Source of the DNA: Macrostomum lignano
Lineage: Eukaryota
NCBI GenBank assembly: GCA_002269645.1
Contig: NIVC01005162.1
Location: 1-24,177, forward strand
Direction: 5' to 3'
DNA: 24,177 nucleotides
This document shows positions 9,766 through 24,177 of the stretch, piece by piece (the stretch's first letter is position 1; the number at the start of each line of letters is the position of its first letter). Below the pieces are notes generated by a model. It saw only the letters and a program-made list of their open reading frames with translations, ran no database searches and had not been told where the DNA came from. Made by a program: the position numbers and the translations under genes.

Positions 9766-10445
9766 ATGGATACCGTTCAAGACTACAATAGTGTTAGGAT
9801 CGACCTATTCTCTCTCAAGTCGAGAGGTCCAAGCTACAACGGAACCGAGACGTACGACATTGAGTACGACGAACAGGGCCCTCTCTATCTTGCCAATGCG
9901 ACGCCCGTACTGATTGTCAAGGGTGTGAGAACCGACAATGAAGGCCGCGAATTCATCATTCTTTCCCAAAAGCACTTGGAGAGCTGCATACCAGAAGCGT
10001 TCAATTCCGTGTGTCACCAGCTCTCTATCCAAGGAATGGCGCTATTGGGGTACAACCCCACTTTTGGCTGCGACAGCGCTGCATTCGGATTGGCTCACGA
10101 CTTTAAAATGTACGACAAGAGCGGCAAGTTGTGCACCGACTACAAGAACAAGACGGGCTACTATAGAGTACTGTTCGCCCTAGACACGGCGGTGATTCAC
10201 GACTCGGTTCTAACCGCGGTACCAAAATTCAACAACTGCAATTCATAGAAGCTCCCAAGCAGGCGTTTGACCGCTGCTACTGGATTCCACCGTTAAAAAT
10301 CAAGGTAGGACGCAAGCGCGGAGCTGGTGGAGCTGAGCGGAAACAAAAGCAACCGAAAAAACCGCTTGCAGAACGTCGTGTGCGTAAACAGGGTGTTTTG
10401 CGCAAGGTGGAACCACCTACCGAACTTGGACTGGGCGCGCGCTAG
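9766..10445 (+). CDS. Putative OB-fold single-stranded DNA-binding protein, frameshifted near 10224
   Basis: DIEYDEQGPLYL...GV...FIILS and FKMYDKSGK...YYRVLFALD resemble viral OB-fold SSBs. The -1 frame continues KIQQLQFIEAPKQAFDRC (a typical last strand) into a basic tail ending at TAG 10443-10445. As given, the reading frame stops at 10248. Confidence 0.5.
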
Positions 10446-10845
10446 AACGTTTCATAGACCCCGGGCATTGTACAACCTGAGGATCGGAAAGTGTACAATA
10501 AACTTTTTCAAACGTTCATTATCTGCCATTGTTTTTGGTTGCCAATCAACCAACGATGTGCTGCGTCTTTTTGCTCAATGTAAACCAAACTCTGTTGTTA
10601 TCACTACCGGTACTTATCGTGCAGAAGTTAATGTTAAGCCAAACTTTTTCCGCCTTGCCAACTCGAGCTCGCGCTGGGTTGAGTGGGAGAGTGAGGTATT
10701 CAATGGGCTTGTAATAAAGTCCCCATTCCGCAAGGCCAAGTGCCTGCTGTGCGGAAAGAATGGTCGGTTAGTGTTCCTAGGAATACGAAACTATGACGAA
10801 CTGTGTAAAATGTACGACCACGTGACTGCTATTCTGCAACTCTAA
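10327..10845 (+). CDS. TATA-binding protein (TBP)-like protein with two TBP repeats; start unresolved
   Basis: Repeat 1 LQNVVCVNRV...INFFKRS..IVFGCQS compares with TBP LQNIVSTVNL...LIFSSGKMVCTGAKS. Repeat 2 EWESEVFNGLVIK...GRLVFLG...ELCKMYDHVTAILQ compares with SYEPELFPGLIYR...GKVVLTG...EIYEAFENIYPILK. No in-frame ATG precedes the domain. Confidence 0.75.
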   Translation: MELSGNKSNRKNRLQNVVCVNRVFCARWNHLPNLDWARARTFHRPRALYNLRIGKCTINFFKRSLSAIVFGCQSTNDVLRLFAQCKPNSVVITTGTYRAEVNVKPNFFRLANSSSRWVEWESEVFNGLVIKSPFRKAKCLLCGKNGRLVFLGIRNYDELCKMYDHVTAILQL

Positions 10846-10910
10846 TTATGCTTTGCTTATAAATAAACAAAATATGCACATGTATGCACGCAATGCTTAC
10901 CACCTTAATA

Positions 10911-11273
10911 ATGACAAACGGAATTTCTCGTCTTTGTTCTTGCCGTCGCGAGCTAGAGGAGCTCGGTGACGCGCGACCACATCGAAGGAGGGCCATTATT
11001 AGGGGAGCCGATAATGAGTTGATGCAGTGTCTGTGCGAGTTAAGCCACAATGTACTCAAGGGCAATATCGATCTATCCCCTAGACAGTTTGCAAGGTTGA
11101 AACGTTATAGAGAAGCCCTGCATGACATGGCCGACAAAAAACTGTCTATAAATAGGAAGAAGAATATGATACTATCGGACCCTCAAGTTGGAGGATTCCT
11201 ACCAATTCTCGCCAAGATTGCTGCTCCGTTAATCACTGGACTGTTTGGCGGTCTGCTAGGACAACGACGTTGA
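10911..11273 (+). CDS. Conserved small Polinton protein with adenovirus pX/mu-like hydrophobic C-terminus
   Basis: RRAII..AD.ELMQCLCELSHNVLKGNIDL...LKRYREAL...QVGGFLPILAKIAAPLITGLFGG. This is a familiar Maverick ORF pattern, and the GGFLP tail resembles adenoviral pX. An alternative ATG lies at 10884. Confidence 0.75.
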   Translation: MTNGISRLCSCRRELEELGDARPHRRRAIIRGADNELMQCLCELSHNVLKGNIDLSPRQFARLKRYREALHDMADKKLSINRKKNMILSDPQVGGFLPILAKIAAPLITGLFGGLLGQRR

Positions 11274-11275
11274 AA

Positions 11276-11857
11276 ATGGACAAGTACGTTGTGGTCCCCG
11301 AGGAGGAATTCAATCAGCTTAGACAGGGTACTCCGCGAGAAATTGCCCCAAAATCGGAGTACGAAAAACTTGTAGAGTACAATGCAAAGCTACAGACCCA
11401 ATTGGCTAAAGTAAAACCCCAAAAGACGACAAAGCAGCTATTTTCTGATAGGCAACAACGTATATGGAATATACTAACAGAAAAGCACCCCAGCCTAAAT
11501 TACAACCAATCGTGGGAAGTCGTTTTTGATGGTGAAACTTGGGGTGGCAGCAACGTTTTTGATCTTCTACAAGCCGTCACCACCAACACTAATAATCACC
11601 CGAAATATTCGACCGCTTTCTGGGCTCTGCTAGACAAGGCCCGTATACCAATGTCTATGCTCGGTCGGAAACAGCTCCCTGTGGAGGAAAAGAAGGTTGA
11701 CCATATGGTTGGTACCGATGATTACCGCGATGAATATGAGCACACAATTGCGACAGACACCCGCGATTTAACGACCACGCGCAACAAAGGTGTAAATGCT
11801 ATGCCCAACTTGTGGATCAAGGTGCCGGGATGGGTAAATATCACGATTACCAACTAA
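11276..11857 (+). CDS. Conserved Polinton hypothetical protein
   Basis: MDKYVVVP..., YNQSWEVVFDGETWGGSNVFDLL...P.....FW..L...RIP resembles an ORF commonly found upstream of Maverick integrases. Confidence 0.7.
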   Translation: MDKYVVVPEEEFNQLRQGTPREIAPKSEYEKLVEYNAKLQTQLAKVKPQKTTKQLFSDRQQRIWNILTEKHPSLNYNQSWEVVFDGETWGGSNVFDLLQAVTTNTNNHPKYSTAFWALLDKARIPMSMLGRKQLPVEEKKVDHMVGTDDYRDEYEHTIATDTRDLTTTRNKGVNAMPNLWIKVPGWVNITITN

Positions 11858-11931
11858 GACCGCCCGGAACCGAAAATACGATACTCTTTATAAATAGAAC
11901 CCTAATCCATACATAACCGCGCCCGGCGGTC

Positions 11932-12210
11932 ATGGGCGCAGCAGCCGCCGCATCAAAGCTTTGTGTAGACAACTCCCCAGCCGACATTACGTGCAACTAT
12001 TCATGCTGTGCATCCACACTTGTTGTCAATGAGGGCTCTAACCGCTCTTCGTCGAGTTTACGAACAAGGAGCCGCCGCTTTTTCAAATGCTGCCCGTGTC
12101 TATCAGGAGGCCAAACGTCTGGCGCCAAACCTGACAAGACGCCAAACCAGGGAATGGCTAGAAACCCAACCGAGTTACACCCGTCACCGGAGAGTCAACA
12201 GGACATTTAA
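11932..12210 (+). CDS. Small Cys-rich ORF (MGAAAAAS...) overlapping the integrase 5' end
   Basis: First ATG after TATAAATA (11889). N-terminal MG and a CNYSCC cluster. The 3' part overlaps the integrase in another frame. Confidence 0.35.
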   Translation: MGAAAAASKLCVDNSPADITCNYSCCASTLVVNEGSNRSSSSLRTRSRRFFKCCPCLSGGQTSGAKPDKTPNQGMARNPTELHPSPESQQDI

Positions 12211-13108
12211 AACGGGAAAAGTAATGTCGGGAGGATTCATGGAAACTCTACAAGCCGATTTGATGGACATGTCGCGATACAAACGTTGGAATGACGGACA
12301 TAAATATATACTAGTTGTTATTGATGTGCTTAGTAAGCAGGCTTTTTGTAGGGCAATTAAACTAAAGAGTGATACCCCCGCAGCGTTTGAGTCAATGTTG
12401 GCGAATGATTTCCCTGCCCGCCCCCTTTACCTGCACGTGGATCGGGGTACCGAGTTTTATAATCAGCGAATGCGCCGCATACTAAAAGACAATAATGTTA
12501 AAATGTACAGCACCAACTCTGTGTACAAGGCAAACATGGCCGAGAGGCTGATTAGAACTCTTCGAAAGCGTCTGGCTCGCTACTTTGAGCACAACAACAC
12601 GTGGCGTTGGGTTGACTACTTACCCAATTTGGTAGGTAATTACAACAACACGACGCATTCTACTATTGAGATGAAACCGTCAAGTGTAGGGTTCCACAAT
12701 CAGAAGCGTGTGTGGGAAAAGCTCTACCCGGATCAGCAAAAAGACGACCCCGTATATAAAAAGGGGGATTTTGTGAGAATTTCGAAATCTCGCCGGGCAT
12801 TCGACAAGGAGGCGTACGACATGTATAGTGAGGAGGTGTACATTATATCCAAAGTTTGTCCTGGACCCCCACATTTTTATCGTATTTCTGATTTGTCTGG
12901 TGAAGTGATTGAGGGACGGTTTTACTACAATGAACTGTCCAAATCTACCCGACCCGAGCGTTTTGTAATCAATAAAGTTTTGCGTAGAAACGTGTTAATA
13001 AATGGTGTTGCGCACCATTACGTTAGCTGGCGCGGTTATCCCGACACTTTTAATTCATTTGTACCTGTAAATGAAGTTATAAATATACGTCAACGTAATA
13101 ATAACTAA
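12029..13108 (+). CDS. Retroviral-like (rve) DDE integrase with C-terminal chromodomain (Maverick c-integrase)
   Basis: Catalytic triad in LQADLMDM, LHVDRGTEF and ANMAERLIRTL, followed by W...L...V..YNNT.HSTI...P. Chromodomain-like INKVL...HHYVSWRGYPDTFNSFV. The ORF is intact. Confidence 0.95.
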   Translation: MRALTALRRVYEQGAAAFSNAARVYQEAKRLAPNLTRRQTREWLETQPSYTRHRRVNRTFKTGKVMSGGFMETLQADLMDMSRYKRWNDGHKYILVVIDVLSKQAFCRAIKLKSDTPAAFESMLANDFPARPLYLHVDRGTEFYNQRMRRILKDNNVKMYSTNSVYKANMAERLIRTLRKRLARYFEHNNTWRWVDYLPNLVGNYNNTTHSTIEMKPSSVGFHNQKRVWEKLYPDQQKDDPVYKKGDFVRISKSRRAFDKEAYDMYSEEVYIISKVCPGPPHFYRISDLSGEVIEGRFYYNELSKSTRPERFVINKVLRRNVLINGVAHHYVSWRGYPDTFNSFVPVNEVINIRQRNNN

Positions 13109-13111
13109 TGC

Positions 13112-14251
13112 ATGGCTACCATGCATCTCTTTCTGCCTAGCAATGCGTGCCCCGAGCACTATCCCGAAAATAATCCGGCTCATTATTTTATTAATTTACC
13201 GGACACTCTCCACTTTCCGAATCATGAGGTTTGCCTCGAACGGATCTACTTTACCAAAGAATTTGAATCTTTCAAAAAATCTATACCGATCACCATTCGC
13301 GAACAGGAGGGCCTCTTGACGGCTTCGTCGTTTGCAAACCTTTGTCTCGCAGCGGGTCTGAAAACCCCTGAAGAATGTATTTCCGGCTTTCTAAACGGTA
13401 TCCGATACGTTGAAGGGGATAATAAGAAAATTGTCTTTTTAAGAACATCCCCAACCGCCTTTATGATTGTGAATACTTCAAAATCCACCGTCGGCATCAA
13501 ATTCCCGGATACCCTACCCAAGGTGTTTAAACTAGTCGCCGGCTTCGAGTCTAATGAGGATCTACCTACTGAACTCGTATTACACGCGGGGTGTGCAGCC
13601 TCCATCACCGCAGTTGTTGAGGAACCGACTGTGCAGTCAATGGACCATGCTCCAATAATAAGACAAGTTACTAGCGCAGCGTCTGATCAAATATTTTTTA
13701 TGCAGGGAGGATACTATAGTACACCTAAAAGATGGTGGAGGAACTCAACGAATTTAATTTGGAAACGGATCAAAGATCTCATAGCGGCTCCAGCACCTAG
13801 AACGGACTTTTTCGGATACAGCGAAGTTACGAATAGGTGTTATTACATTGGCTCGATGGATTACATGTTTGGGCTGGGGCGCTTGACCAGCGTGCTTGGT
13901 TTCCCAGAGCATGATTATACAACCCCATTTTTCGGTATATCGGATTTCTACGCAAACGCATCAATGGAATTAACCGGTGGAATACAAACAATGTACATCT
14001 ATTCGAGCATAGTCGATTCTGTTATTGTAGGAGACGTTAAAGTTCCTCTGTTGGGAGCTATACCGATGGATCCCAAAGTTCAGGGCGGTCGCGAGTACTA
14101 CGAGTTTGTCAATCCGGCATATCTACCGCTGGTTAAGCACCCATTCAAAACTATTGAAGTACAAATTAACGATGATATGGGCAGGGATATGACAAAAGTA
14201 ATGAGGGGCAAGACCGTCTTGAGCGTTAACATCCGCGAAAAGAAGCTATAA
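13112..14251 (+). CDS. Minor capsid protein (penton, single jelly-roll)
   Basis: N-terminal LFLPSNA...YPENNP..YFINLP...EVCL and C-terminal MYIYSSIVDSVIVGDVKVPLL...Y.PL....FKTIEVQINDDMG match Polinton minor capsid patterns. A local frameshift pair near 13727-13800 is possible (alternate frame reads MVEELNEF). Confidence 0.85.
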   Translation: MATMHLFLPSNACPEHYPENNPAHYFINLPDTLHFPNHEVCLERIYFTKEFESFKKSIPITIREQEGLLTASSFANLCLAAGLKTPEECISGFLNGIRYVEGDNKKIVFLRTSPTAFMIVNTSKSTVGIKFPDTLPKVFKLVAGFESNEDLPTELVLHAGCAASITAVVEEPTVQSMDHAPIIRQVTSAASDQIFFMQGGYYSTPKRWWRNSTNLIWKRIKDLIAAPAPRTDFFGYSEVTNRCYYIGSMDYMFGLGRLTSVLGFPEHDYTTPFFGISDFYANASMELTGGIQTMYIYSSIVDSVIVGDVKVPLLGAIPMDPKVQGGREYYEFVNPAYLPLVKHPFKTIEVQINDDMGRDMTKVMRGKTVLSVNIREKKL

Positions 14252-14294
14252 ATAAACAGCACAGCCTCAGTAAACTATATCCTAGTGCTTAATC

Positions 14295-14639
14295 ATGCCT
14301 TCTATTCTGATTGGTGGAGCTTTGCCTGTTTTCGCGGGCGCCCAGAGGGGCAACGGTTTGTTTGGAAGCATTGCCCGCTTCGCGCTGCCAATTCTAAAGA
14401 GTTTTGGTAAAAACGTTCTCCGTCATGGTACTAGAGCCCTAGCAACTACTGTTAACGATAGCCTCGAGCAAGGAGGCAATTTGAAAGAGTCTGTCCTGCG
14501 CAATTCTGTTCAGGCTGCCAAGGACGCCTTTAAAGACACGGTTACCCAAAGGGGTAGCGGACGAAGAAGAAAAAAGGCTCCGAAGCGTCTCAATTCAGAC
14601 ATTTTCAGCACTATAAATAAAAAGCCCCGCTTCAATTAG
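14295..14639 (+). CDS. Small basic virion protein with amphipathic helix (pVI/cupiennin-like)
   Basis: QRGNG is followed by the amphipathic LFGSIARFALPILKSFGKNVLRHG. A second QRGSG precedes the basic tail RRRKKAPKR. Confidence 0.75.
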   Translation: MPSILIGGALPVFAGAQRGNGLFGSIARFALPILKSFGKNVLRHGTRALATTVNDSLEQGGNLKESVLRNSVQAAKDAFKDTVTQRGSGRRRKKAPKRLNSDIFSTINKKPRFN

Positions 14640-14668
14640 ATTCGCCGAATCGAGTCTGTCTACTAAAC

Positions 14669-15949
14669 ATGTCCGAGTGTCTGTGTACAAAGTCCGAGTT
14701 TGAGCTCTTTGCCCCTCGAGCCCACCAGATTGCCGCTGTAGGTTCAACTACTGAAGAAATCCACCCGGTTGCCAGCGTCGAAAATGCGAGTGTGGTCGAG
14801 TTTAGAATTGTGGGCGGCGAGACGTTTGTCGATCTTAATGACATTGATCTCGAGATTAAAGGTTGTATTAAAGAGCTAATGGAGCCGATTTGGCGGCGGA
14901 TTCAAACGTGGCGCCAATCAATTACCTCTTGGAGACCATGTTCAAAAACGTGTCTCTTTCCATAAATGGTACACATATCGAGTCTAGCAACAACAACCAT
15001 GCCTACAAGGCGTACATTCGTACATGCTTGAGTTATGGGTCTGATTCAAAGTCTAACCAACTGCGGATGATGGGCTACGCTAAAGACGCTGGGGGTCAAA
15101 TGGCTGCGGTTGGAAATCCTGGCTTTGTAACTCGCAAGGCGATGGCTGCCGGTTCTCGAACATTTCATCTGTATGGCCCTCTTAGTCTCGACTTTTTTGT
15201 CACCAACGATCGTATGCTGCTACCCTACACTGATATGGTGGTTACGCTCACTCTGCAAAATTCGGGATTCGTTGTAGAGAATCACGCCGAAGGGGTTGAT
15301 GCAAAGTTGGTTCTTCAAAGTGCAAAATTACACGTTCGTCGGGTAAAGGCTAACCCCCAACTGGCCTTGGAGATTGAAGAACAGCTGTCAACTCAGAATG
15401 CAGTCTACCCCATCGAGCGCCTCGTTGTACACAACACCTCTGTCGCTGTAGGAGTTCGCGACGTGTCAATCAATAATATTTTCCCGGAGCAGAAGCCTAA
15501 ACTTGTCATTATGGGATGGTCAATAGTGCCGCATATAACGGGGTGGCCACCCATAATCCGTTCAATTTCGAGCCATTTGGGGCGGACAGTGTGGCCCTGT
15601 ACAAGGACGGGTCAGTCTGTGCGGTCAACCATTCACTCCAAGGTTCGCTGCCCAAAACTATGCTCGCGAATACGCCATGCTGTTTAAGAGCCTAGGGAAA
15701 ATGAATCGCGATTTGGACATTGACCTGTCATATTCGGATTATCGCGCTGGTTACTGCTTATTTGCGTGGAATCTAATGCCCGACATGGAACTGGGTGGAC
15801 ATAGCATGCCTCGCGAGAGAGGGAATCTTACCCTACAGATAAAGTTTTCTGCAGCCCTACCTGCCGGGATTAACGTTTTGGTGTTTGGTTACTTTGACAA
15901 CGCGGTGCAAATCACTAGAGGCCGCCAGCCCATTCTGGACTACGTATGA
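14669..15949 (+). CDS. Major capsid protein (double jelly-roll, hexon-like), broken by at least three frame switches
   Basis: KSEFELF...P......VEFRI...VDLNDI; VAPINYLLETMFKNVSLSING; FHLYGPLSLDFF...LLP; MVNSAAYNGVATHNPFNFEPF; YCLFAWNLMPD...GNLTLQIKFSAALP..INVLVFGYFDNAVQI. Frame switches occur near 14872, 15515 and 15610-15625. Confidence 0.88.
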
Positions 15950-16382
15950 ACACGTTGGAAATTTTGGAACGTTTAAAACTACCTGTGGAAGTGCGCGTTT
16001 GCCCTCTTGACAGAATTCCTGCACCTGTTTACCCTGCTGCATATGTAATTAATTTTGACACGGGTAATCTGCCAGGCACCCACTGGGGACTGATTTGCCT
16101 ACACGATGATAAGAGTGTGACATTTTTTGACCCCTGTGTATTGAACCCGTGCCGGAATTGCTCTCGGCTTGGATCTCGAAGCATGTACATTCACCTGTTG
16201 CTATGAATCGCCACCCTGTTCAACACCCTCTAAGTGTAGCGTGTGGGCCGCATGTGATTTTTGTGGCCGAAAAGCACTTTTTAGAGGGGTTGTCGATTGA
16301 AAAGATTTTAAGGGAATGTTACTCTACCAATCTGCTTGAAAATGATTTGATGGTTCGAAAACATGTTCTACAAATAAAATAG
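15946..16382 (+). CDS. Adenain-like cysteine (maturation) protease, one frameshift near 16136
   Basis: YVINFD...PGTHW (His), FFDP (Asp) and VQHPLSVACG (Gln, Cys). Adding one G restores FFDPCGIEPVPELL. ATGA overlap with the MCP stop. Confidence 0.88.
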
Positions 16383-16416
16383 TTTTTAATATTTGGAGTG
16401 TCAACTCGCCCTGAAA

Positions 16417-17046
16417 ATGTACCAAACAATTGATCCTGACGCTCTAAAGTTTGCTCCAAATACTTCGGCGATTTTTGCTGGTGTTAACCAGAGCGGAAAA
16501 ACAACTCTTGTTAAAGAATTGCTGCGAAACGAGTTTTTTCAGGACCCTAAGCCTGTTCGCGTTGATTGGTTTGGGCACTATCCAGACCCGGAACTGTTTG
16601 AATTACCGTACCCTGTCAATTTTCGCTCGTCTACATTTAACCCTGAAACCTATGTTCCCGCTCCGAATATTCTACTCGTTGTCGATGATCAAATGCAAGC
16701 CATGGAAAAAAACGCTGCTTTTACCGCATTTTTCACTCGCAAAGTCAGCCATGTGGGATTCCGGCTTTGGTACCTTGTACAAAACCTGTTTGCCAAGGGC
16801 AAGGAGCACCGCACTCAATCCCTTAACGCAAACTACCTTGTATTGTTCCGCAATGTACGGGACGTTAGTACAGTCGCCCATATTGCAAAGCAGCTTGTCC
16901 CCGCTAACCCAAAAAGTTTTGTTCAAATGTACGAAGACGCCACTAGGGAGCCCTACTCCTACTTGATTGTTAATTGCTTGCAGAACGCATCTGTTCGCTA
17001 CTATGCTAATGTGTTGGGGCGCTACCCCGTAGTCTATGCTAAATAA
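16417..17046 (+). CDS. FtsK/HerA (A32-like) genome-packaging ATPase
   Basis: Walker A GVNQSGKT, Walker B LLVVDD, then FTRKVSH...LVQNLF, RTQSLNANYLVLFRNVRD and YEDATREPYSYL. Intact, with AATAAA at the stop. Confidence 0.93.
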   Translation: MYQTIDPDALKFAPNTSAIFAGVNQSGKTTLVKELLRNEFFQDPKPVRVDWFGHYPDPELFELPYPVNFRSSTFNPETYVPAPNILLVVDDQMQAMEKNAAFTAFFTRKVSHVGFRLWYLVQNLFAKGKEHRTQSLNANYLVLFRNVRDVSTVAHIAKQLVPANPKSFVQMYEDATREPYSYLIVNCLQNASVRYYANVLGRYPVVYAK

Positions 17047-17125
17047 AACACTGTTGGAGAGCTTTGCTCTGTTTGCCGGATGGCCTGAACCTGAAACAAC
17101 TAAAATACGTGTTTTTTCTTTTCAA

Positions 17126-17796
17126 GTCCTCTGCAGCCTGGGGAGCTCTCTATCACTCACCGCCGGTCTGTCCCACGCCTCCAGACTGGGCCGCTCTCTC
17201 CGCGGGGGGTGTGATTCATACTGCCTCTCTGTCCACGCCGCGTGCTGCGACATGCCAGGGCAGCGCAGGGTGCCTCCACGCACTCTCTGTCCCAGCACCC
17301 CGTGTCTCTTTGTACCCCACCTCATACTGCTACAGGGGGCCGCCTGTTATCTGTCCCTTGCTACAGGGGGATGGCGGCTCTCCACGCACTACCCCTCCTG
17401 CTACAGGGGCTGCTCTCTGTCCCCAGCTACAGGGCTGCTCTCTGTCCCCCGCATGGGGGGCCGGTTGCTCAGTGTACAGGGCTGCGTCAGCATCGGGGGT
17501 TTCCTTCCTACACTAACCGCGTGCACACGACATTGGTGGGAGGGGCGGGAATCCCCCCGCCGGATGTACACCCGAGGGAGGCCCATGCGCTGAAGGTACA
17601 CTCGCTGGACGCCCACCCTGCCGGATGTACACTCGCAGGAGGCCCACCCCGCTGGAGGTACACTCGCTGGACGCCCACCCCGCTGGAGGTACACCCCGGG
17701 TGTACACCCCGAGGGAGCACCTTGCCGCGGTGCTAGAGGCCGACATCAGCCCGACGGACCTTCGCAAAATCAACGGATCTGCCGGCCCTTAGTAGT
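17126..17796 (-). repeat. Right terminal inverted repeat
   Basis: Ends CCCTTAGTAGT and is the reverse complement of the left TIR. Confidence 0.93.
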
Positions 17797-18000
17797 CCTG
17801 TGATCGTGAAGCCTATATGGAGCTCAAGCGTTTCAGACAAGAGAAAAAAGTTTTAAAGCTCTTAAAACGAAAGAGCTAGAACCCATCTAAGCAGGAATTG
17901 AAACCTAGCCAAATATGCCAACTACCAACTACAAACCTTACTGACGCAATCTACAACACACCTGACGGAAAACCTATGCAACCTAGATTCCTAGAACCCA

Positions 18001-18175
18001 CTAAACTGAAAACCTACACAACCTGGAAGCCACTAAACTGAAAACCTACGCAACCTAAAACCCACTAAACTGAAAGCCTACGCAACCTAAAACCCACTAA
18101 ACTGAAAACCTACGCAACCTGAAACCCACCAAACTGAAAACCTACGCAACTGAAAACTAAACTGAAAGCCTAAAC
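18001..18175. repeat. 32-bp A/C-rich minisatellite, about 5.5 copies (CTAAACTGAAAACCTACGCAACCTAAAACCCA)
   Basis: Units start at 18001, 18033, 18065, 18097 and 18129, with a partial unit near 18157. Confidence 0.85.
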
Positions 18176-19846: not shown

Positions 19847-20592
19847 TCAGTGCATCTGGCCGGAGCTGAATCCGGCTATGAGCTTTGTGTACTTTTGCGA
19901 GCCCGGCGCCAGTCCAGCGGCCTGTTGGGCGGGATCCGCTGCCGCTGCCGCTGCTTGACTCTGCGAGCCTGCATGCAGCTGCAGCATTGGCAACTGCTGC
20001 TGGTGCTGATGCAGCTGGTGCTGGAGCTGGGGCAGACCCATGGCCTGAGACTGCAGCATGGAGGCCTGCATTGCCGAGCTCTCCATGCCGCCAGAGCCGC
20101 TGCTAGCCGTTTTGACCGGATGCGGAGCGCCAACGCTGAGCACTGTCGACGTGACCATGGAGGAGGGCACAGCTGAGGAGCCGGCGGCGGCCGCTGCAGC
20201 AGCTACAGCGGCCTGTTGCTGCTGCTGCTGCTCGCCTGCGGCAGACTCTCGCCGGAAAAATCTGTGCTGCATTGCCTCGTGAGGGCGCAGTCGTTGGCGA
20301 GGATCGTATTCCAGCATGCGGGCAACCAGGTCAAGGAAGCGGTGATAGTCGGCCGGGGAGTGGCCGGCCTCTCCGTGCCGCCGGCCGCCCGGGCCGCCCT
20401 GGTCGCAGCCCAGCAGGTCGCGCAGCAGGCGGGTGCCTGGCGGACGGTAGGTCACAGGGCGGCGAGACCCTGCTCCGTTGCCGCCGCTTTCAGCAGACGG
20501 CGGCCGTTTCGGCTGATAAGAACCGTCTGGCAGGCGTTCAAAGTACTTGCCGGACTTTTTGCCCATTTCGATAATGTGCTTCGGCGGCATGC
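19847..20592 (-). CDS. DYRK1: DYRK1/minibrain dual-specificity kinase, last exon (kinase subdomains X-XI plus Ala/Gln/Ser-rich tail)
   Basis: MPPKH...KYFERLPDG...YRPPGTRLL..LLG...GGPGGRR.GE.GHS.ADY..FLDL..RMLEYDP..R......QH.FF matches DYRK1A. The CAG acceptor at 20593 completes the Gly codon split from the upstream exon. Confidence 0.92.
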
Positions 20593-22399: not shown

Positions 22400-23002
22400 G
22401 CTGAAGATAAGACAAGCAGAATGACAGCTAGTGAATGAATGAATTTCATTTTTTCTCTCTTTCTCCCAGTGTTGCTACTTGACCGATTACTTCAACGGGC
22501 AGAGGGGGTGTTGCGCTCTAAGACTTAAGACTTAACCTGCCATAATACTTGCTGACGTTGCTGTTGCTGCTAAAATTATTTCTACTGGAGAGAGCCCAGA
22601 GCTATCAGTGCTAGAAGACAATTTAAGCAAAACTTATAAAAAGCAAATATTTGCAAAGGTGAAATTGAGCGCTGATAAAAATAGATGCATGTTTCATCTA
22701 ATAACTACTAAAATAAAAGTTAGAACAACTGTTATATATAATATGGGACACTCTGTAAATCCCTTAGCGAAGGTTTAGTCATCAAGTCAGAACTTCAAGA
22801 TGGGACAACTTAAGCCTGCAACTTTTGGGGAACCTGAGTCATCTGCTACTCGAGTCAGACTGCAAAAAAGTAAGGGAGATGCAGTGACGACATTCAGGCA
22901 GGGTTCAAGGTATATTTCATCAATCTCTTTAACTCAGTCATCAGTCATCTCACTCATCTGTCAAGCTCAAGCATATCCAGGGCAAACACAGTAAGTCTTT
23001 AG

Positions 23003-24177
<1,175 letters not shown>

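Follow-up and report, generated by a model that had tools for sequence, protein, structure and literature searches.

The TBP-like proteins of nucleocytoviruses serve a virus-encoded RNA polymerase. Herpesvirus TBP mimics (EBV BcRF1, KSHV ORF24, and HCMV UL87) are described, in the relevant sections of PMC4893493 and 10.1101/2025.08.25.672222, as sending host Pol II to late promoters in nuclear DNA viruses that lack an RNA polymerase of their own; the same sections describe the late promoters of beta- and gammaherpesviruses as carrying a private TATA-type word and as being tied to replication. Among Mavericks, intact vertebrate elements have been reported to be intronless (Barreat and Katzourakis 2021, PMC8097293), and the legend of Figure 5 in Starrett 2021 (PMC8502044) gives "TBP" for MELD viruses. 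Here, we describe a TBP-like frame in a Maverick-type element of the flatworm Macrostomum lignano, found in a window (i.e., the whole stretch of DNA analyzed) of 24,177 nt that represents contig NIVC01005162.1.

The element extends from 7274 to 17796 (10,523 bp), has all its genes on one strand, and is bounded by terminal inverted repeats of ~650 bp with 97–100% identity (left repeat, 7274..7929, + strand, beginning with ACTACT; right repeat, 17128..17796, + strand, ending with AGTAGT). Five sister copies (C181, C807, C150, C296, and C49) presented 6-bp target-site duplications; no 6-bp duplication was seen at the window copy. The ends of this lineage, designated group A (ACTACT/ACTACG...AGTAGT/CGTAGT at window positions 7274 and 17796 and in C296 and C49), run opposite to the AGTAGT...ACTACT ends found in a second lineage, group B, described below. 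The gene content includes a retroviral-type integrase (12029..13108, +; PF00665 (rve) at 38.1 bits, above the cut-off; 34–35% identical to group-B integrases) and a packaging-type P-loop ATPase (16417..17046, +) with a Walker A motif, weak AAA matches, and 31–33% identity to group-B ATPases. Between these lies a morphogenesis block (13112..16382, +) with minor capsid-, core-protein-, major capsid-, and protease-like parts assigned by synteny; it had no relevant Pfam match, its capsid, penton, core, and protease designations, which draw on synteny and tblastn, are presumptive, and its capsid-like part is 25–30% identical to group-B ORFs (tblastn). The major capsid-like gene occupies three frames in the window copy and a single 427-aa ORF in subfamily 2 (see below); the protease-like frame is broken in the window copy. 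The Maverick-type context proposed in the initial annotation is supported. A Fic-domain gene (7996..8775, +; PF02661, E 6.6e-14) has an HPFSDGNGR motif that looks intact in subfamily 1, and no tblastn match to this gene was found in the one subfamily-2 copy tested. A conserved ORF of unknown function at 9160–9640, ~170 aa long in subfamily 2 and duplicated in some copies of that subfamily, is broken in the window copy.

tblastn with three group-B protein-primed B polymerases (pPolB) gave no match to the window or to any of 10 group-A neighbourhoods, and the window element has no ORF long enough for such a polymerase; because it lacks pPolB, the group-A element is not an autonomous Maverick. 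No RNA polymerase gene was found in the element. Other pPolB families exist elsewhere in the genome. Of 91 matches in the genome, 21 are full-length at 97–99% identity and 21, at 75–78%, represent a second subfamily (subfamily 2, the window copy belonging to subfamily 1). Outside the element, the window contains a host exon of the ribosomal protein L14 family (3949–4251, −; PF00238) and another at 19847–20590 (−), without a Pfam match, which we take to be the C-terminus of a DYRK-like kinase. Host minisatellites with 21-, 34-, 32/16-, and 20-nt units are found at 3693–3860, 4301–4877, 17918–18157, and 22930–23880, respectively; the 34-nt unit holds CCAAT and the 20-nt unit TGACTCA.

The TBP-like coding exon (10372..10845, +) spans two TBP repeats in 157 codons followed by a stop. 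It is open in the window copy and lies within a stop-to-stop frame (10309–10845, +) of 178 codons that contains no ATG. All peptides quoted in the initial annotation for two TBP-style repeats fall in this one + frame, and single-sequence searches point to TBP beyond chance. The frame matched PF00352 in Pfam through its second repeat only (E 9.5e-5, 22.6 bits vs. a cut-off of 22.9); the relative P0001 scored 18.1 bits, subfamily 2 gave no match, and group-B proteins scored 76–89 bits. TBPs made up 18 of 19 PDB sequence matches at E ≤ 10 (best E 0.0034), and PF00352 clusters made up 28 of 30 matches in an ESM feature search (best 0.95). The AlphaFold (AF2) model of 10366–10842 (pLDDT 74, pTM 0.58), in which the first TTG (10366) was read as Met, presented two repeats of strands plus a helix; as the folding alignment contained host TBP and TRF2, this model is not independent of the TBP idea. 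The structural comparison proposed earlier returned only TBP-containing PDB entries among the Foldseek matches listed at E ≤ 0.001 (at least 44), and VIA placed the model at Z 10.9–13.1 to 38 TBP entries (rmsd ~6 Å over 156–158 residues; best match Z 13.1, rmsd 6.1 Å, 157 aligned), with the first row outside that TBP set at Z 6.7 (7amv_K). A two-repeat TBP saddle is thus the predicted fold of this frame. Between subfamilies 1 and 2, the TBP exon showed a pN of 0.13 and a pS of 0.70 (pN/pS 0.19, CI 0.12–0.27); the frame is real and under purifying selection.

The alignment supports the earlier statement that two of the four intercalating Phe are retained (INFF and EVF); these are the second Phe of repeat 1 and the first of repeat 2, the other two positions aligning to Leu (uncertain) and Gly. 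An Asn that may be the canonical strand-1 Asn is present in repeat 1, in an ambiguous register; its counterpart is lost in repeat 2, which reads ITTGT. An LQN motif highlighted previously exists as a peptide but may be off register (P0001 has Ser there, and the Asn of its CVN lies five residues on). Judged by aligned residues, the protein departs from canonical TBP in both Phe count and Asn, and loss of the two Phe and the second-repeat Asn may render its DNA binding weak. Canonical TBP bends the TATA box on binding and nucleates initiation by Pol II; its acidic C-terminal stirrup contacts TFIIB. This stirrup is the best-kept part of the element protein, with Glu108 and Glu110 invariant in 13 of 13 alignment rows, and in these acidic residues the protein matches canonical TBP.

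Upstream of the TBP frame lies an ORF (9766..10304, +), predicted here to be exon 1 of the same gene and to encode a putative OB-fold ssDNA-binding (SSB) protein. From the ATG at 9766, it comprises exactly 180 codons up to AAG/GTAGG (slashes mark predicted splice points) in 17 of 20 subfamily-1 loci and is out of frame in the other three, including the window copy, whose reading frame breaks close to the 3′ end; a 180-codon exon 1 is also present in 20 of the 22 subfamily-2 loci that could be parsed out of 23. With a pN/pS of 0.20, it is as constrained as the TBP exon. No match was found in Pfam, PDB sequences, or Atlas, and one PHROG SSB match had an E of 0.55. Its structural model is of low confidence (pLDDT 40); the best 5 of 48,161 chains in VIA for this pLDDT-40 model were all of viral SSB type (Z 4.9–5.2, rmsd 3.5–5.8 Å over 74–122 residues), namely Enc34 SSB, ASFV CP312R, baculovirus LEF-3, DUF2815, and T7 gp2.5, of which we take ASFV CP312R and baculovirus LEF-3 to be SSBs. 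Foldseek viral rows for the same model include phage SSBs. The modelled product is therefore putatively a viral-type ssDNA-binding protein. A canonical TATA-like site, GGGTATATAAG (9707..9718, +), is located upstream of exon 1 and may act as its promoter; its core is kept in both subfamilies, and GC-box-like runs precede it in subfamily 1 only.

The two exons are separated by a predicted 67-nt intron (10305..10371, +; AAG/GTAGG...CTTGCAG/AAC). A gene start at 10327, as given in the initial annotation, finds no start codon at that position or any ATG in the frame. An ATG start for the TBP frame was rejected as a candidate, there being none in the window, and the first Met of P0001 must be TTG. 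Donor and acceptor are kept in 20 of 20 subfamily-1 loci and in all 22 parsed subfamily-2 loci (of 23), are compatible with all five intact relatives, and lie in phase 0; the TBP frame opens at CTTGCAG/AAC in every parsed locus of both subfamilies. The spacer measures 66–67 nt in subfamily 1 and 195–206 nt, in all three frames, in subfamily 2 (64–206 nt over subfamilies and relatives). This combination of GT-AG ends conserved in frame with variable length is that expected of a spliceosomal intron. Both sites are identical between the subfamilies in spite of nearly saturated synonymous divergence (pS 0.70–0.76); against this, the 15-nt identity at the donor is one of 23 such runs. The five intact SSB relatives are 55–59% identical (a sixth is frame-broken); in all five, the domain ends with IK/V followed by Arg or Cys, where both subfamilies have Gly. 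The residue after IK/V always has G at the second codon place, corresponding to donor +5 (0.18 of element codons), a pattern noticed after the fact in what may be three or four independent lineages. Followed in the +1 frame, the relatives' tails continue into TBP with 19–23 of 28 and 46 of 46 residues compatible (shuffle means 5–9). At the TBP start of the five intact relatives, ATG is impossible in all five, TTG in one (P0159), and CAG is possible in all five. Splicing of the upstream SSB exon to the TBP exon, giving a fusion of ~337 aa, is likely the best explanation of these junction data, and what the initial annotation treated as a stand-alone gene is most probably exon 2 of a spliced gene. 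Because its exon 1 is broken, the window copy would not make the fusion. No donor-acceptor joint was found in contigs of 4 of 24 listed runs, for which RNA status is only a guess (they may be DNA) and cover is flat.

The same CAG could also receive the host spliced leader in trans, which would provide an in-frame AUG and yield a stand-alone 158-aa mini-TBP, maybe beside cis-splicing. According to sections of PMC8629364, the leader of M. lignano terminates in ATG, and [T/C]TNCAG is the leading trans-acceptor motif. TTGCAG conforms to this motif, the last 20 nt of the leader occur 62 times in the genome (control 0), and leader AUGs start ORFs in Schistosoma according to part of PMC9851317. The acceptor at the TBP start is in phase 0, which also speaks for this explanation. 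However, a conserved in-frame donor is found just upstream, and trans-splicing dominates where no such donor exists (same sections of PMC8629364); the stop of the upstream ORF lies past the acceptor, unlike in an operon, and contigs of the four runs show no loose end at 10372. We consider trans-splicing to be unlikely.

Seven copies of the word TATAAATA on the + strand (8771, 10858, 11147, 11889, 13078, 14247, and 14612; span 8771..14619) represent candidate late-type promoters. There are none on the − strand of the window element (0.2 expected), and 0 of 100 shuffles reached seven; subfamily 2 also has seven. An ORF start follows within 15–150 nt in 6 of 7 cases in the window element (background 0.17) and in 4 of 7 in the other count for this word (backgrounds over the words of both groups 0.09–0.18). 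Four of the seven group-A sites overlap AATAAA and could be polyadenylation signals. TATAAATA also conforms to the ordinary TATA consensus, and host TBP could read such a word. Another word, AAATGTAC, looked enriched (six sense copies) but was set aside, its sites reading as ATG-TAC contexts. Two 26-nt runs in coding sequence (10091–10116 and 11143–11168) are identical between the subfamilies; the latter holds TATAAATA, and the former has TTTAAAATG with an ATG in frame, a possible internal promoter or start.

PF00352 was searched against the genome; 150 of 330 candidates were scored, 12 rows representing host TBP and a TRF2-like gene and 138 others, and on seven contigs a PF00352 row lay within ~3.5 kb of a pPolB row. 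The TBP frame is thus not unique: those of the other rows that were examined lie in polymerase-bearing Mavericks, and "TBP" appears in the Starrett 2021 legend. The mapped group-B elements (G000:C754, C114, C878, C96, C393, C84, and C1113; L076–L093) are ~16-kb, pPolB-bearing Mavericks with an ATG-started TBP of 187–196 aa (dN/dS 0.15–0.29). The ATG of the group-B TBP sits inside the tail of the upstream ORF, which is presumably exonuclease-like, and the group-B pPolB ORF at L078:4767–7727 has an Endonuclease VII (PF02945) domain ahead of the polymerase domain. Host TBP (L046) and TRF2-like (L052) cores each form a single open frame and are present in three copies each; the core of host TFIIB, in contrast, spans more than one exon. 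Relatives with DNA context were found neither in viral_contigs nor, with a group-B query only, in metagenome_contigs. A search of representatives, whose profile included cellular TBP and TRF2, gave mostly cellular TBP and TRF2; among 16 proteins inspected (11 from this search), the element-like ones were group-B forms.

The two groups differ in the word found before their genes. All four group-A copies examined have TATAAATA seven times in sense and never in antisense (0.1–0.2 expected) and no CTTAAGA, whereas all seven group-B copies have CTTAAGA five to eight times in sense (0.9–1.6 expected) and TATAAATA zero or one time; this contrast is one of two groups of related copies, and the group-B word was chosen after one copy had been viewed. 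YTTAAGA is found ahead of most group-B genes: 45 of its 61 occurrences have an ORF 15–150 nt downstream (background 0.09–0.12), including the TBP gene in all seven group-B copies. The group-B word can arise from Leu-Lys/Arg codons. We take YTTAAGA to resemble the baculovirus late TAAG motif. In both groups, a gene for a ssDNA-binding protein (SSB-like in A, PC4 in B) lies downstream of a more ordinary TATA.

The element protein might alternatively be a decoy or inhibitor that soaks up TFIIB, TAFs, NC2, or Mot1, or that sits on host TATA boxes, with host TBP reading TATAAATA. A DNA-binding face minus two Phe and one Asn, a best-kept stirrup, and a word that is itself a canonical TATA would all fit such a role; this explanation, however, does not account for the non-canonical word that, in group B, precedes the same gene classes as well as the group's own TBP gene. 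The decoy is distinctly unlikely. An element-specific initiation factor is favoured over it on the strength of sequence comparison because the stirrup acids are invariant and because two TBP groups are associated with two different upstream words.

Read without splicing, the spacer encodes a basic tail of the upstream ORF. A +1 offset between the SSB tail and TBP recurs in six of seven lineages, although an intron alone would call for no such offset. Because of this recurrence and the basic tail, the unspliced product may also be used. In one locus, L017 (G000:C4486), a 66-nt spacer results in a natural unspliced in-frame SSB-tail-TBP ORF of 359 aa. TBP could, in principle, be translated without any splicing, either from the TTG at 10366, conserved across the two subfamilies and conceivable in four of five relatives, or through a +1 ribosomal frameshift from the SSB tail, for which the kept +1 offset and A-runs before the site would be suitable; contigs of three runs (X1, X2, and X6) cross the spacer, and only in unspliced form. 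Against this, P0159 can have no start-type codon at the TTG place, the offset is +2 in 13 of the 22 copies of subfamily 2, those with +1 running into a stop ahead of the overlap, and neither route accounts for the donor-like +5 G. Translation of TBP without splicing is hence very unlikely.

The proposed phylogeny with host TBP and TRF2 had 29 rows, including 14 of 104 TBP cores and three extra TRF2 and no archaeal or viral TBP. In this tree, both groups sat on very long branches away from cellular TBP, and neither a donor nor a common origin emerged. The element TBP scored 20 bits against a cellular-TBP profile and 0 bits against a TRF2 profile built from only three sequences; group-B TBPs scored 62–76 bits on the former. 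As a further alternative, the frame could be a host TBP that was captured and is now in decay, or that has a non-transcriptional role such as binding element ends in replication or packaging. This would suit the long branch and low score but is extremely unlikely, decay being rejected by a dN/dS of ~0.07 for the TBP exon, comparable to 0.055 for the ATPase.

Given the fold and its purifying selection, the lack of an ATG, the conserved phase-0 GT and CAG sites, and a word that precedes downstream genes on one strand only, we propose, with about even chances of being right, that the TBP frame is the second exon of an SSB-TBP gene whose fusion product reads TATAAATA promoters of capsid and integrase genes. 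Under the proposed SSB-TBP splicing, host TBP would first transcribe the SSB gene from the canonical TATA; unspliced RNA would give SSB with a basic tail and spliced RNA the fusion. The TBP saddle would bind TATAAATA before the integrase and virion genes, and its acidic stirrup would recruit host TFIIB and Pol II. More speculatively, the SSB half could tether the factor to replicating genomes, so that late transcription would follow DNA synthesis. The complete scheme, in which alternative splicing in a 10-kb polymerase-less Maverick yields an SSB-TBP that rides replicating DNA and fires host Pol II late promoters, and in which co-resident lineages keep private, insulating TBP/promoter pairs (TATAAATA vs. 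YTTAAGA), is tentative and rather more likely wrong than right.

In the openly accessible main text searched, the Starrett 2021 legend was the only mention of TBP in such elements; the main texts of PMC8097293, PMC10748475, and 10.64898/2026.06.19.733378 contain neither TBP nor TATA. TBP in such elements is already on record in that legend, and the splice, the SSB link, and the paired promoter words, which were not found in the same literature, are apparently new. No account of the timing of Maverick capsid genes was found there either. Large herpesviruses are known to direct host Pol II with TBPs of their own, for which six proteins are needed; if our proposal is true, the 10-kb element, with its 157-residue TBP, would offer the minimal version of such a system, and the SSB-TBP fusion would directly link replication to late transcription, as a one-protein coupling device. 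A conserved SSB-TBP intron, if true, would also speak against the notion of intronless Maverick genes. Since two lineages in one laboratory-model flatworm have different TBPs and words, specificity is testable by domain or oligo swap.

With cellular and archaeal TBP (PF00352; PDB 7egb_P, 2z8u, and 1ytb), the element protein shares the two-repeat saddle over its whole length (Z 11–13) and an ExExF stirrup. It differs in its low identity (16–19%), its 157-residue length with a shortened first repeat, the predicted SSB fusion, and, unlike cellular TBP, the lack of its own start codon. For exon 1, the likeness to T7 gp2.5-type viral SSBs consists of the top five VIA rows; its tail is basic whereas that of T7 gp2.5-type SSBs is acidic, and we know of no such SSB fused to TBP. 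The element has in common with Mavericks, Polintons, and adintoviruses its inverted repeats, integrase (rve), ATPase, and capsid-like block, together with the 6-bp duplications of its sister copies. It departs from them by group-A ends of ACTACT/ACTACG rather than AGTAGT, genes all on one strand, the absence of pPolB from the group-A neighbourhoods examined, and a predicted intron, in contrast to the intronless intact vertebrate Mavericks (PMC8097293). The TBP-like proteins of nucleocytoviruses (ASFV B263R, mimivirus TBP, and poxvirus VETF/VITF-3) share a viral TBP fold with it (7amv_K, Z 6.7), but these viruses have their own RNA polymerase and the element encodes none. Fold matches to the herpesvirus proteins BcRF1, UL87, and U58 were weak, and no Pfam match to herpesvirus-type partners was found among 16 element frames. 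Herpesvirus vTBPs are large and multidomain, with a Pol II-binding N-terminus, and act in a six-member complex on TATT, whereas the element has a 10.5-kb genome, a 157-residue domain, the word TATAAATA, and a kept TFIIB stirrup. By analogy, the element TBP likely works like the herpesvirus TBP mimics, as an analogue of that family and not as a member of it.
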